Notes: generated from the letters alone by a model not told the origin. A DNA stretch of 64,000 nucleotides from Candidatus Enterousia sp. (GCA_045546195.1 JAZQCH010000002.1:23328-87327); one strand, 5' to 3'. Numbered from the stretch's first letter, positions 37,178-62,324 are shown. Numbers and translations: made by a program.

Positions 37178-38284
37178 TTATCGTTGTTTCAGATTTTCAA
37201 TCAACTCTACAAACAAAATCCGTGCGCCATCTAATGCGGCGTCGCGCCAACGCACGTCCGACGGATACCAACTTTCGGTCAGATTTTTCCATGTTTGTGT
37301 GTTTATCCGCCCACTGTTCAGCAAATCATAACGCGCATCCCCCATATCCATCCGCTTGTAAATCGGTGACATAATTGGAAATTCCCCTGTGCCAATTTCA
37401 AAATCAGCGGTATAAACTGGAATTTCTGGCGCGGCATAGCGCACCTCTAAACAATCCACCAAATCCCCCAGCAACACTGGCCCATTTGCGGCACTTTCAT
37501 ACGAAACAACCGTCGTCCCATGCAACATATTCGCAAAATATTGTGTATTTTTATGCTGGGCTGGATGTGAAACAACCAACTGACCTGTCACGCGTCCCTG
37601 TTTTCTGTCAAATCGTCCCAACCCGGTATGCAGCCCAATTGAAGTCAAGGATTTTGCACCACGCATCACTTCGTCATAGATACGCATTGTCATTTTGTTT
37701 TCTGTCATCGGTGCCGCCCCGCCATAAAACAACCCATATGGATGTTTATATTGCCCACGACTGATTGCGTCCCACGCGCCATCTTTTCTGTGTTTGTGAT
37801 AAAAATTTTTAATTGCGTTCTTTTTCTGAACTGCGTCCGGCTTGGCCAGCAACATATCATGCGCCAAATCATATTTCGGATTCTGGGGCAGGGCATCTGG
37901 ACGGCTAAAATCCACCCCAAAGTTACGGTTTAAATCCACCAAACCACCGCGTTTTGTATCCAGTACTTCGCGCATACGATTCTGCATCCCCCAACCATTG
38001 ATAACATGAATCAACACAATGGTATATTTCTGTAAAAAATCCGGGGTTAAATCACGGGCGAATTTGTCCAGGAACATATTCTGTGCCGCACTGCCAAAGA
38101 ATCCTTCGATTCCATGAACACCTGAATTTATAACAATCTTGTGTGGGCCACTACCAATCAAAACATATGGGATATCAAAATTATGCCCATCGGCCACACA
38201 CCACCGCAATTCACCAAACTGTGGTGCGGTTTTATAGAACTGTTCCGTTGCCTGGTGCCAATTTTCAGAATAATAATTTTTCAT
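37178..38284 (-). CDS. DUF2817 / M14-like zinc carboxypeptidase family protein
   Basis: SGVHGIEGFFGSAAQ (HxxE), HVINGWG, VDLNRNF, GLFYGG, LHTGLG. Confidence 0.8.
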   Translation of the reverse strand: MKNYYSENWHQATEQFYKTAPQFGELRWCVADGHNFDIPYVLIGSGPHKIVINSGVHGIEGFFGSAAQNMFLDKFARDLTPDFLQKYTIVLIHVINGWGMQNRMREVLDTKRGGLVDLNRNFGVDFSRPDALPQNPKYDLAHDMLLAKPDAVQKKNAIKNFYHKHRKDGAWDAISRGQYKHPYGLFYGGAAPMTENKMTMRIYDEVMRGAKSLTSIGLHTGLGRFDRKQGRVTGQLVVSHPAQHKNTQYFANMLHGTTVVSYESAANGPVLLGDLVDCLEVRYAAPEIPVYTADFEIGTGEFPIMSPIYKRMDMGDARYDLLNSGRINTQTWKNLTESWYPSDVRWRDAALDGARILFVELIENLKQR

Positions 38285-38322
38285 AATTATGCCTTTGGTT
38301 TTTCTCTCTCCGCCGGCGTGCC

Positions 38323-39138
38323 TTACATTACTTTACCCTGTGTTGGATAAAAAGTTAACTGAATTTTTTCCCACTTTGAAAACTCGTTAACCGGCAACAT
38401 CCGGAACGGCTGACAAACATTGATTGCGTTTCTGATTGTTTCCAACACATACGCAAACGCCGGGTCGGTATCAGCACGCGCCGCCGATTCAAACCACACA
38501 TCCCGCACAGTGCCGTTTTTACGCATAGTCAAATGTGCCACCGCACGAATATCCGAAATATCCGGCCGTTTTGTATCAATTACCCAGCATCGCGTCATCG
38601 CGACACGCAACGCATCAACCACAGACACCGTCAATGTGCGTTCCAACGATAACACTTCACGATTTACACGCACAACCTTCTTTTTGCGTGGTGCCGCAGG
38701 TGCGGGTTCAACCGGTTTTGATTCCGGTTTTACTTCTTCTGGCTTTTTCTCGGGCTCTTTTTCTGGCTCCGCCTCTGGCTCTTGTACTTCTGGTTCGGGC
38801 TCTGGCTTTGGTTCTTCGACCAATGTTGGTGCCTCGATTTCTATCTTTTCAGGTTCTTCTGCGGGCACTTCTTCTTTATCAGGCTGCGCAACCGGCGCAG
38901 GCGTCGGTTCTTCGGGTTTTGATTCAACCACCTGGCCAACATTGTACAGTTTTGTTTCATCCCCGCTAACAACAACATCGTTCAAATCGATTTCCATGAT
39001 TTGAATTCTGTCAGGTGCCACCAACTGTGCGCGATTAACAATAATCGCAAACGATGTAATCATAATCGCCACCAACGCCAGATGCCCACCCACCGACATT
39101 AACAAGTTTTCTGTTGAAAATTGATTAAATTTAGCCAT
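38323..39138 (-). CDS. tolA: TolA/TonB-like energy transducer
   Basis: N-terminal TM with SxxxH, Pro/Glu-rich linker, C-terminal RCW...AINVCQPF..LP...W...LTF.P; downstream of tolQR. Confidence 0.85.
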   Translation of the reverse strand: MAKFNQFSTENLLMSVGGHLALVAIMITSFAIIVNRAQLVAPDRIQIMEIDLNDVVVSGDETKLYNVGQVVESKPEEPTPAPVAQPDKEEVPAEEPEKIEIEAPTLVEEPKPEPEPEVQEPEAEPEKEPEKKPEEVKPESKPVEPAPAAPRKKKVVRVNREVLSLERTLTVSVVDALRVAMTRCWVIDTKRPDISDIRAVAHLTMRKNGTVRDVWFESAARADTDPAFAYVLETIRNAINVCQPFRMLPVNEFSKWEKIQLTFYPTQGKVM

Positions 39139-39143
39139 TGATT

Positions 39144-39557
39144 TTATTCTGGTTGTGTACGCAGTCCAACTTTCTGAAAACCTGAATCCTTTAATTTACC
39201 CATCATGCTCATCACTGCGCCATAGTCCGCATGTGTATCCCCACTAATCATAATGGTCAGGTTTGGATTTTCCCCACGCATCGCAATCGCGCGCTTTACA
39301 ATTTCATCGCGTGGCAATTCCATTTCCGACAAAAAGTACCGTCCATTGGAATCCACACTAATCTGAATCGCGTGGTCATTACCCGTCATTGCGGATGCAC
39401 CCGCGCGCGGCAATTCCAGGTCAATCCCCGTTGTCATCATTGGCGTTGTCACCATAAACACCGCCAACAGCACCGTCATAACGTCAATCATTGGCGTTAA
39501 CTGAATTGAAAAATCTGATTTATTGCGTCTTAATCTGGACATTTGCGCCACCATCAT
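39144..39557 (-). CDS. tolR: TolR/ExbD
   Basis: IQLTPMIDVMTVLLAVFMVTTP, GD...YGAVM..M..LKDSGFQKVGL. Confidence 0.9.
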   Translation of the reverse strand: MMVAQMSRLRRNKSDFSIQLTPMIDVMTVLLAVFMVTTPMMTTGIDLELPRAGASAMTGNDHAIQISVDSNGRYFLSEMELPRDEIVKRAIAMRGENPNLTIMISGDTHADYGAVMSMMGKLKDSGFQKVGLRTQPE

Positions 39558-60938: not shown

Positions 60939-61624
60939 TTTATTTCCACCAACGCTATCCCCAGATTTTGTTTATTCTTCATCCGTTGTCGCACATAGGC
61001 ATCCATATCCACATCAACAACCATGCCATGAACACTGGATGCGTGTCGCAACTTTCCATTTGGCAACCACCACCCCATATGAACAACCGCCAAATCCGTA
61101 CCTATTGTATCACGAAAATTCGGGTTGTCAGTAATAAACAGCACAATCATCGGCTGGTCAATTTTAACATCTTGAACGAACCTGTACGGTATATATTCTA
61201 AATCAACAACCACTGACGGCACATCAACATCAATCCCATGAACCACCTTGAACCAGTTTGCTTTGTCTATCACCACACGCCGTATATCAGTCGGCGCATA
61301 TTTTGCGCTAGCATTTTGAACAATATCAGAATTATTCCGCATCCAATCAGATTCAATAAAATGATTACGCGTCAAAAACCCCACATTACCATTTTCATAT
61401 CGAATTTGATTCAGGCAACACTCGCACCCATCTGCCAACACTGTTTCCACGAACGTCGTACAGTCAAACGCATCAAATCGAATTAACGGTCCATCATCGG
61501 GCAGGGCACATTCCCCCAACGGCGATTCAACATATCGCGCCCCTAAAAAAGACTGACCGGGGTATTCAGTGTCACCACCAACACACCCGGCCAGAATAAA
61601 AAGCACCAATCCCCTGCGCCACAT
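60935..61624 (-). CDS. DUF1460 amidase-like lipoprotein (permuted NlpC/P60)
   Basis: Lipobox LAGC, FLGARY, FDCTTFVE, RNHF..DW, VVHMG, RHASS. Confidence 0.85.
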   Translation of the reverse strand: MWRRGLVLFILAGCVGGDTEYPGQSFLGARYVESPLGECALPDDGPLIRFDAFDCTTFVETVLADGCECCLNQIRYENGNVGFLTRNHFIESDWMRNNSDIVQNASAKYAPTDIRRVVIDKANWFKVVHGIDVDVPSVVVDLEYIPYRFVQDVKIDQPMIVLFITDNPNFRDTIGTDLAVVHMGWWLPNGKLRHASSVHGMVVDVDMDAYVRQRMKNKQNLGIALVEIK

Positions 61625-61626
61625 AT

Positions 61627-61932
61627 TTACAAATTATCTTTCATCTGAATCCCTGTCAGGCACAACGACATCGCGTCACGAATTGCCATTTCGCCACTGT
61701 CTGGCAACTGCGCCATCTTATTCACGCACGCCACCAACAAATCAACATCTTTATCTGCCCCTGCCAAAATCTGTGCCGCCGCCACACGCCGTTCCACCGA
61801 CGCTGCGCGCCAATCCTTTAAAACACCTGTTTCTAACGCGCTGCTGCGCTGGGCAAAAAAGAACATCACCACAACAAAAATCAGCACACACACACCGATA
61901 AAAAATTTAAAGTACTTCTTGATAAAGTTCAT
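61627..61932 (-). CDS. Hypothetical membrane-anchored protein (101 aa)
   Basis: N-terminal TM, ATGA overlap with the upstream gene. Confidence 0.75.
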   Translation of the reverse strand: MNFIKKYFKFFIGVCVLIFVVVMFFFAQRSSALETGVLKDWRAASVERRVAAAQILAGADKDVDLLVACVNKMAQLPDSGEMAIRDAMSLCLTGIQMKDNL

Positions 61933-62324
61933 CTTACATCCTCCTGTTGTAAACTTAACATCAATTCCGCGAATCTTCCATGTGCCTTACGGGCATGCAC
62001 CAACAAATCCGCATCTGTTATTTGTTGTACCTCTTTCTGATAAACAACCCTGTCCACAAAAATTTTCGTTGGCGTATTAGTGTACCAAAAACCATCATGA
62101 GTTTTTTCACACGCAATATCCTTGGCGCTGACCATATAAATCGTCGTCCACACACAATGCGGGTCCAGTGGTCCAACGCGTTGCGATTCTATCAGCATCT
62201 GCCGCGCCTTTTCCCGGGTTGAACACACCCAAACGCGCGAATCAACATTTGACCAGGCTTCACCTACGCGATGCACACAATTCGAATTCCCCAGCATATA
62301 TCCAGTCATATTTTTCAGTTTCAC
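61929..62324 (-). CDS. Hypothetical protein (131 aa)
   Basis: Fills the gap in the operon, SD AGGGG, GTG start. Confidence 0.7.
   Translation of the reverse strand: MKLKNMTGYMLGNSNCVHRVGEAWSNVDSRVWVCSTREKARQMLIESQRVGPLDPHCVWTTIYMVSAKDIACEKTHDGFWYTNTPTKIFVDRVVYQKEVQQITDADLLVHARKAHGRFAELMLSLQQEDVR

Follow-up and report, generated by a model that had tools for sequence, protein, structure and literature searches.

A short arginine-ending C-terminal tail on the flexible genes of Candidatus Enterousia, a candidate type IV secretion tag

In this study, we examined gene ends in a 64,000-nucleotide stretch of a Candidatus Enterousia sp. genome (GCA_045546195.1, JAZQCH010000002.1:23328-87327; hereafter the window), in which the original prediction had picked out seven unrelated accessory genes whose products all end in a short tail with arginine as last residue, encoded by AGA or CGA directly before the stop, and had proposed that this end is either a sorting signal or a cassette signature at the DNA level. 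Comparison of three genomes of the genus showed that the end [KR][TSQ][KR]$, with $ for the C-terminal end, is found in 0.8-1.5% of the genes shared by all three but in 11-16% of those unique to one of them (odds ratios 8-21). We propose that two layers are superimposed, namely a general codon bias of the stop context and a protein-level C-terminal tag on the flexible gene pool, the tag having the consensus Q-[K/R]-[Q/T/S]-[R/K]-COOH and being carried by many unrelated, mostly small, basic and soluble proteins. The tag would be a recognition signal for a machine binding free C-termini, with export by a type IV secretion system (T4SS) as the leading candidate, and the tagged genes would be a candidate set of effectors or cargo, with ~28-31 members among the called genes of each genome and further members among array genes missed by the gene caller. 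To this whole statement, codon bias, protein-level tag and T4SS step taken together, we assign a probability of about 0.4.

The window corresponds to G000:C2:23328-87327, where G000 is a genome of 938 kb in 13 contigs (97.9% complete, GC ~48%) from which a 3-periodic Markov gene caller built for this analysis called 825 genes, 83% of the sequence being coding. Enterousia has been placed in the order Rs-D84, with genomes below ~1 Mb and most biosynthesis missing, and an obligately symbiotic or parasitic life, dependent on partner cells, has been proposed for Rs-D84, as described in PMC12306168. GC content varies widely within the order, G016, from another family, having 30%. Two genomes of the same genus were compared with G000, namely G003 (whole genome, 50% GC) and G107 (958,618 bp in one contig), the latter being an independent replicate that took no part in pattern discovery.

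When genes of G000 and G003 were split into those with and without a reciprocal best hit in the other genome, AGA or CGA was the last codon of 16/645 G000 genes with such a hit and of 18/180 without (p 4.7e-5), and any Arg codon that of 31/645 and 35/180, respectively (p 6e-9), while AAA ends made up 23.7% vs 21.7%, which is not significant. Pooled over both genomes, 59 of the 1290 reciprocal-best-hit genes ended in Arg vs 83 of the 375 others (p 2e-22), and [KR][TSQ]R$ was found in 5 and 26 genes, respectively (odds ratio 19, p 4e-13). For the three-genome split, the genes of each genome were classed by matches to stop-to-stop open reading frames (ORFs) of the other two, and [KR][TSQ][KR]$ was counted. 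It was present in 5/633 shared and 16/112 unique genes of G000, 7/642 and 20/126 of G003, and 10/662 and 15/139 of G107, with Arg ends at 4.4% and 25%, 4.4% and 32.5%, and 4.7% and 18%, respectively. Genes present in one other genome had an intermediate motif rate (8.7% in G000, 5.6% in G003 and 4.1% in G107). Enrichment of the terminus in orphan genes, which the original prediction had suggested from a handful of cases, was thus strongly positive in an independent test and replicated in three genomes.

The signal extends beyond the last residue. Residues enriched in non-core genes were R at -1 (19.6% vs 4.5%), Q or T at -2, R at -3 and Q at -4 (10.4% vs 3.2%, p 4e-11), with no enriched residue at -5 or -6, and Lys ends were not enriched (24-25% vs 26-28%, and 15% in the unique genes of G107). 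KQR is the commonest C-terminal tripeptide of G000 (9 observed vs 0.65 expected), QKQR closes five of its proteins vs 0.03 expected and is found only three times internally in the whole proteome, and the top tripeptides of G003 include KTR, KSR and RTR (5 each vs 0.3-0.6 expected). With bulk composition equal, the motif is 73 times denser at the C-terminal end than internally, and it is strictly terminal, falling from 11.7% at the end to 0-3% on shifting by 1-11 residues. BLAST clustering divides the 65 tagged non-core proteins into 61 unrelated families. The general bias at gene ends does not by itself explain how often Arg ends occur in the class to which the seven genes belong, there being an extra signal at -2, -3 and -4. 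Other ends are also over-represented, QSQ (4 vs 0.08 expected) and EQSQ (3 vs 0.01) in G000, LCK (10), KTK (12) and CIE (6) in the family A loci described below, and, in two cases, CCIE in G003; either paralogy or additional end motifs may lie behind them.

The general bias itself is strong. Among the 825 genes of G000, A occupies nucleotide positions -1 and -2 in 56% each vs 23% at third codon positions, and positions +4 to +7 in 45-50%, and TAA makes up 77% of stops. The last residue is K in 25.8% (4.5 times the bulk), E in 13.5% and R in 8.0%. Terminal Arg codons are AGA 19, CGA 15, CGT 19, CGC 8, CGG 2 and AGG 3, the shares of AGA and CGA among internal Arg codons being 4.7% and 6.5%, so that enrichment at the last codon is 9.3-fold for AGA and 5.3-fold for CGA, next to 6.1-fold for AAA. 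Thr (0.5%) and Cys (0.1%) are rare as last residues, and the end-of-gene bias is unusually strong for a genome of 48% GC. The A-rich context is equal before coupled, distant and convergent neighbours and thus belongs to the stop context; downstream start regions as its cause were ruled out by the unchanged bias before convergent neighbours. G003 has the same stop-context bias. Over the three genomes, NGA has a 48% share of terminal Arg codons among core genes (1937) as well as among non-core genes (603), vs 9.5% internally. Across 1,582 bacterial genomes, the survey of Weber et al. 2020 reports K and R enriched at -1 by 2.32- and 1.76-fold, and only CGA (the most strongly enriched, odds ratio 4.44), AGA and AGG enriched among Arg last codons (PMC7246954). 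The idea that AGA or CGA is special to the seven genes is therefore not supported, given our counts and this published bias, and a codon preference common to core genes cannot mark an accessory set.

The AGA or CGA last codon is thus almost certainly part of a genome-wide stop context (..AA/TAA/AAAA), a local and stronger form of the pan-bacterial bias. Genes for tRNA-Arg(UCU) and tRNA-Arg(ACG) are both present. Mutation of TGA to CGA or AGA ahead of a back-up TAA was considered and rejected, with Gly at 2.4% of ends vs 7.4% in bulk (GGA not enriched), and it leaves positions -2 to -4 unexplained. Pairing of CGA-TAA with the 3' end of 16S rRNA was rejected likewise, the 16S of G003 ending in GGATCACCTCCTTT, which accounts just for the AAGGA after the stop. 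For annotation, this means that an AGA or CGA last codon is general and no marker of foreign genes.

The tail, as distinct from the codon, is conserved at the amino-acid and not at the nucleotide level. Tail Arg codons vary in G003 (AGA 6, CGC 5, CGT 2, AGG 1, CGG 1, CGA 1) and in G107 (CGA 4, CGT 4, AGA 2), and the ends of homologues stay basic, with 115 of 120 homologue clusters of DUF2817, the peptidase-like product of one of the seven genes, ending in K or R. Orthologue tails change in length and sequence yet keep basic ends in this family as well as in those of the 270-aa protein and of the 131-aa accessory ORF from the window. As DNA words, the 9-mers occur at close to expected frequency, with ACACGATAA at 18 vs 11.7, CAACGATAA at 21 vs 20.2 and CAAAGATAA at 34 vs 36.6 (observed vs expected). 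Downstream of the tagged genes there is a terminator in 34% and a coupled gene in 23%, in the same proportions as for other genes, and the tagged called genes are scattered, with about the expected number of adjacent tagged pairs. Varied codons, neutral word frequency, neutral downstream context and turnover of basic tails together led us to reject spurious ORFs as well as the proposed GATAA insertion site, for which the 9-mers are not over-represented and the tail is equally common before terminators and coupled genes. A cassette motif of the integron attC type falls on the same word frequencies and codon variation. We regard a genuine tag that operates at protein level as very likely.

Tagged genes also occur in tandem arrays. 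Outside the window, L065:6934-12029 (= G000 C10:12934-18029, plus strand) holds seven copies, one truncated, of a Cys-rich family of ~104 aa (family A; MSFTQE...CDGC..C...YPTIDG...CDHYK[TQV]R), alternating with unrelated genes of 127-228 aa, and most of these copies were missed by the Markov caller. The 11 intact genes of the G000 array all have K-[TQV]-R TAA as their end, after which come AAGGA and the ATG of the next gene. Other Ca. Enterousia metagenome-assembled genomes (MAGs) carry family A at 62 loci, in which 157 of 686 ORFs, spread over 10 clusters, end in [KR][QTSV]R; every relative retrieved with the G000 family A came from an animal-gut MAG bearing the title Candidatus Enterousia sp. 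or Alphaproteobacteria bacterium. In the G000 array and the 62 MAG loci the gene ends read AAR-ACA/CAA-CGA/AGA-TAA, then AAGGA and the next ATG, with the last two codons near-fixed (ACA 64/64, CGA 63/67), the adjoining His, Tyr and Lys codons varying, and the first six codons also conserved at synonymous sites. The junction of ~40 nt (L065, L069-L126), AAR-ACA-CGA-TAA-AGGAAACCAAA-ATG-TCA-TTT-ACA-CAG-GAA, is thus near-fixed at synonymous sites on both sides, possibly due to concerted evolution, a coupling module or a recombination site; for an attC-like element there is no room in spacers of ~10-16 nt. Family A has no Pfam or PHROG family, its model (predicted local distance difference test, pLDDT, 72.7), in which the last three residues are of low confidence, has no PDB fold match at E <= 0.001, and the ESM Atlas gave no usable match. 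Scans of IMG/VR brought up no relatives on viral contigs for either family A or the 270-aa protein, leaving a phage origin without support.

With a median length of 149 aa and a net charge of +3.7 per 100 aa, the tagged proteins as a group are small and basic, and their residues -20 to -4 carry a net charge of +0.95 vs +0.3 to +0.46. N-terminal hydrophobic segments are found in 11% of them vs 20%, and transmembrane-like segments in 8% vs 14-21%, in agreement with the original remark that an obvious N-terminal signal peptide is missing. A BspA-type leucine-rich repeat protein, an HD-domain protein and hydrolase-like enzymes are included, several have a Cys-rich, zinc-finger-like C-terminal domain just ahead of the tail, and most have no match in Pfam, PHROGs or NCBIfam. 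The search for T4SS genes, suggested along with the sorting signal, was positive, since G000 encodes VirB3, VirB4, VirB8, VirB9, VirB10, a VirB11-like ATPase and a VirD4 of 749 aa, spread over several contigs, with no match to the TrbL/VirB6 Pfam model in this genome. VirD4 was found in 60 of the 61 Rs-D84 genomes searched, and in all 51 of high quality. No acidic C-terminal extension was seen on the G000 VirD4, and complex prediction of its residues 140-749 with family A, from alignments of 18 and 64, respectively, scored 0.00, which is neither support nor counter-evidence. The presence of T4SS genes, the properties of the tagged proteins and the Arg-containing C-termini of VirB/D4 substrates together favour a T4SS tag, so that by analogy we tentatively take the T4SS to be the reader. 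A bolder and somewhat doubtful version is that Q-[K/R]-[Q/T/S]-[R/K]-COOH might be a minimal and portable signal for export, recognised by the VirD4 of a chromosomal T4SS near-universal in the order and defining, from sequence only, the fast-turnover effector repertoire of an uncultured, partner-dependent lineage of gut alphaproteobacteria. Such a repertoire would comprise tens of genes per 0.9-Mb genome, including the tandem arrays of Cys-rich ~104-aa proteins, and new enzymes could be recruited to the T4SS by gaining the four-residue tail.

Other explanations of the tail differ in whether they need a reader at all. It has to be considered whether basic ends and A-rich last codons simply raise termination efficiency or yield, with new genes tuned in this way and no dedicated reader, as the literature documents a K/R bias across bacteria together with an effect of it on expression (PMC7246954), the bias in G000 is extreme in both last residues and stops, and the preference for NGA is equal in core and non-core genes. 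However, non-core genes have no excess of Lys, the residue of highest expression according to that survey, but one confined to Arg, with Q/T at -2 and Q at -4, Thr being reported there as rarer at bacterial C-termini, and core genes, highly expressed ones included, are without the tail, which makes this account quite unlikely. Rather unlikely, too, is a reader other than the T4SS, whether a protease or adaptor for which the tail is a stabilising or degradation tag, a type I secretion system, or nucleic acid bound by the tails of mobile-element regulatory proteins. The small size and basic nature of the tagged proteins, the zinc-finger-like domains before several tails and the two S41 peptidases and three TolC-like proteins encoded in the genome would suit one or another of these; but S41 peptidases are periplasmic and tagged proteins mostly have no N-terminal hydrophobic segment, a binding tail need not be exactly C-terminal as this motif is, and enzymes (DUF2817, HD domain, radical SAM) are tagged as well.

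The remaining two explanations deny a protein-level tag. If the ends were a junction module of stop, Shine-Dalgarno sequence and next start serving coupling or recombination, or a GATAA insertion site, the uniform ends of array genes (G000 C10:12.9-18.0 kb and the 62 MAG loci) with their AAGGA and ATG, the near-fixed synonymous sites in the last two and first six codons, and an accessory pair abutting a tRNA gene at 52408-54061 of the window would be accounted for. We regard this as very improbable for the tail in general, as codons vary freely outside the arrays, the 9-mers are at word frequencies expected for DNA, the tail does not distinguish terminators from coupled genes, tagged called genes are scattered with adjacent pairs near expectation, and orthologue tails differ in length and sequence. 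An artefact of spurious unique ORFs or of post-hoc selection is scarcely credible. It is true that the pattern had been noticed before the seven genes were chosen, that the gene caller was home-made and that the coding score of unique genes is lower (0.069 vs 0.101 per nt); on the other hand, the motif is found in just 27 of 6820 uncalled ORFs, taken as spurious background, a count that includes real array genes, the enrichment replicates in G107, outside the discovery set, tagged families are kept across species with basic ends, and the effect is graded by the number of genomes holding a gene.

Several points weigh against a protein-level tag read by the T4SS. The near-fixed codons at array junctions imply an extra constraint at the nucleotide or codon level, for which a pure protein signal is insufficient. 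Although VirD4 is order-wide, there was no excess of the tail, at 2 observed vs 1.4 expected, in 240 kb of G016, a genome of 30% GC from another family, with core and unique genes counted together. Tagged genes are not adjacent to T4SS genes, and an accessory run beside virB3-virB4 is without a tagged gene. The two S41 peptidases, which are tail-specific, and the three TolC-like proteins are candidate alternative readers. The T4SS signals described so far mostly extend over 20-50 residues and are loosely defined, without a strict four-residue end, and radical SAM, ACP-like (acyl-carrier-protein-like) and peptidase enzymes are unusual as effectors. The sorting signal of the original prediction thus stands as far as it concerns a tail enriched in flexible genes and acting at the amino-acid level; export itself is what we infer.

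All seven ORFs on which the prediction was built are present on the minus strand of the window, with the last codons originally given, and five of them were recovered by the Markov caller. The DUF2817 gene (37178..38284, minus; M14-like peptidase family, confirmed by Pfam and NCBIfam) ends in NLKQR (CAA CGA TAA), is followed by a terminator-like hairpin and has no match in G003 or G107; it is present in 17 of 61 genus genomes, with 12 of the 17 orthologues ending in Arg. An orphan gene of 88 aa between rimM and trmD (50515..50781, minus; YGKTR, ACA CGA TAA) belongs to no Pfam, NCBIfam or PHROG family and has no match in G003 or G107. Between rpsP and rimM lies an ORF of 66 aa (51256..51456, minus; IQKQR, CAA AGA TAA) which overlaps rimM by 77 nt, was missed by the Markov caller and has no Pfam or NCBIfam family; the 71-aa ORF that occupies this position in G003 gave a weak 10-residue match only (E 0.01), and it is uncertain that the 66-aa ORF is a real gene.

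The basic protein of 270 aa (52408..53220, minus; AENKR, AAA AGA TAA) and its 16 homologues all end in K or R (17/17; NKR, HKK, KQK, NQK, NQR). Its AlphaFold2 model has a pLDDT of 77 and a predicted template modelling score of 0.37, with residues 1-190 predicted at a pLDDT of ~90 as about eleven helices of 13-21 residues each, an array built on a basic R..YY..N.E repeat, and a conserved Cys-rich C-terminal domain (MCPAF...CPIC...VFEF) that is poorly modelled. No Pfam or NCBIfam family and no PDB fold at E <= 0.001 were matched, and the ESM Atlas gave just matches with a score of 0.83 to unnamed viral clusters, under the counting level. Next to it lies the radical-SAM-like gene (53222..54061, minus, Markov-caller start 53962; LLKVR, GTT AGA TAA), which matches Pfam Radical_SAM at E 4.5e-6, under the curated cut-off, and NCBIfam radical-SAM models weakly, and has no match in G003 or G107 over at least 40% of its length. 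The ACP-like gene of 131 aa (56444..56839, minus; DGKQR, CAA AGA TAA), followed by a terminator-like hairpin, matches PP-binding at E 0.0013 and ACP models at E ~1e-7, both under curated cut-offs, and has no match in G003 or G107. Finally, the 131-aa accessory ORF (61929..62324, minus; QEDVR, GTA AGA TGA) was missed by the Markov caller, yet 13 of the 41 genus genomes searched have it as an open frame, and K or R is the last residue of all 12 copies examined (its own and those of 11 orthologues), encoded by AAA or AGA before an overlapping TGA; its AGA-TGA end is due to the 4-nt ATGA overlap with the ATG of the next gene, and it has no Pfam or NCBIfam family.

Within the span 37178-62324, 6 of the 29 called genes end in AGA or CGA vs 34 of 825 genome-wide (binomial p 0.001, for a span chosen post hoc); all five genes without a match in G003 and G107 end in Arg, as does rimM alone among the 24 shared ones. 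The core gene rimM (50790..51332, minus) ends in VYVR (GTG AGA TAA), its G003 orthologue in TITVK, and is a case of the general terminal-codon bias rather than of the tail motif. A tRNA-Gly(CCC) gene (52280..52353, minus), with a spike of RNA-library depth that fits a tRNA gene, lies directly downstream of the strain-specific radical-SAM/270-aa pair and is a possible insertion point of an island. In two RNA-library runs, contigs were found over parts of the 88-aa, 66-aa, 270-aa, radical-SAM-like and ACP-like genes, one of them spanning the 66-aa ORF; such contigs are no proof of transcription, and nothing follows from uncovered stretches. Elsewhere in the window there are two giant ORFs, at 6906-15917 (minus, 3003 aa) and 18889-25443 (minus, 2184 aa), in a genome of 0.94 Mb. 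Beside virB3-virB4 (L134:9719-12435), a strain-specific run of seven genes includes a tyrosine integrase (Phage_integrase and Arm-DNA-bind_3) and a Bro-N protein, none of the genes being tailed; the integrase/Bro-N region is at L134:1733-3730 (= G000 C1:169733-171730).

While the codon bias was already known, we did not find the core/flexible split or the four-residue motif in print. In the main text of the pan-bacterial survey of C-termini the words "horizontal" and "accessory" do not occur, and no such split is mentioned (PMC7246954); a search for core or accessory genes together with C-terminal arginine gave nothing relevant among the matches listed, and no publication in the library searched joins Rs-D84 with type IV secretion. 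If it is a true address label, the tail would be among the shortest and most sharply defined bacterial C-terminal sorting signals, and would provide, from sequence only, a listing of the exported or otherwise handled proteins of the uncultured, reduced-genome Ca. Enterousia/Rs-D84. Whatever its function, a four-residue C-terminal signature that parts flexible from core genome 8- to 21-fold is testable in other pan-genomes.

Type I secretion systems consist of a TolC-type protein with an ATP-binding cassette/membrane fusion protein (ABC/MFP) pair, and their substrates, usually acidic repeat proteins, carry a C-terminal signal of ~50 residues; three TolC-like frames are found in the genome, and the tagged proteins, basic and small, are unlike such typical substrates. 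The bias reported by Weber et al. 2020 resembles that of Enterousia in the enrichment of K/R at -1 and in CGA, AGA and AGG being the only Arg codons enriched, and differs in that here Arg, not Lys, splits shared from unique genes 4-5-fold or more, within a four-residue motif with Thr or Gln at -2 (PMC7246954). XVIPCD, on the bacteria-killing T4SS effectors of Xanthomonas, is likewise described as a C-terminal signal recognised by VirD4 on a variable set of effectors (review PMC10025392). It is, however, a folded domain of ~120 residues with several motifs, and a common domain of this kind is not seen here, where 65 tagged proteins form 61 clusters. XVIPCD domains have a glutamine-rich tail.

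A close likeness is to substrates of VirB/VirD4 systems, such as VirF, VirE2 and VirE3 of Agrobacterium and the Bep tails of Bartonella, whose signals, as in the tagged set, are C-terminal, positive and Arg-containing, without an N-terminal signal. For Agrobacterium VirB/D4 substrates, a C-terminal Arg consensus motif with an important role of positive charge has been described (review PMC10025392). Known VirB/VirD4 signals span ~20-50 residues and have no fixed end, whereas here the last four residues only are involved, with Q at -4 and Q/T at -2. The Agrobacterium consensus is reportedly R-X7-R-X-R-X-R. Signals of this kind are read by the VirD4 coupling protein, and Enterousia is an alphaproteobacterium with VirB/VirD4 genes, in which two features of a T4SS signal were found, namely a coupling protein gene and a positive, Arg-containing C-terminus on proteins mostly without an N-terminal hydrophobic segment of the Sec-signal kind.

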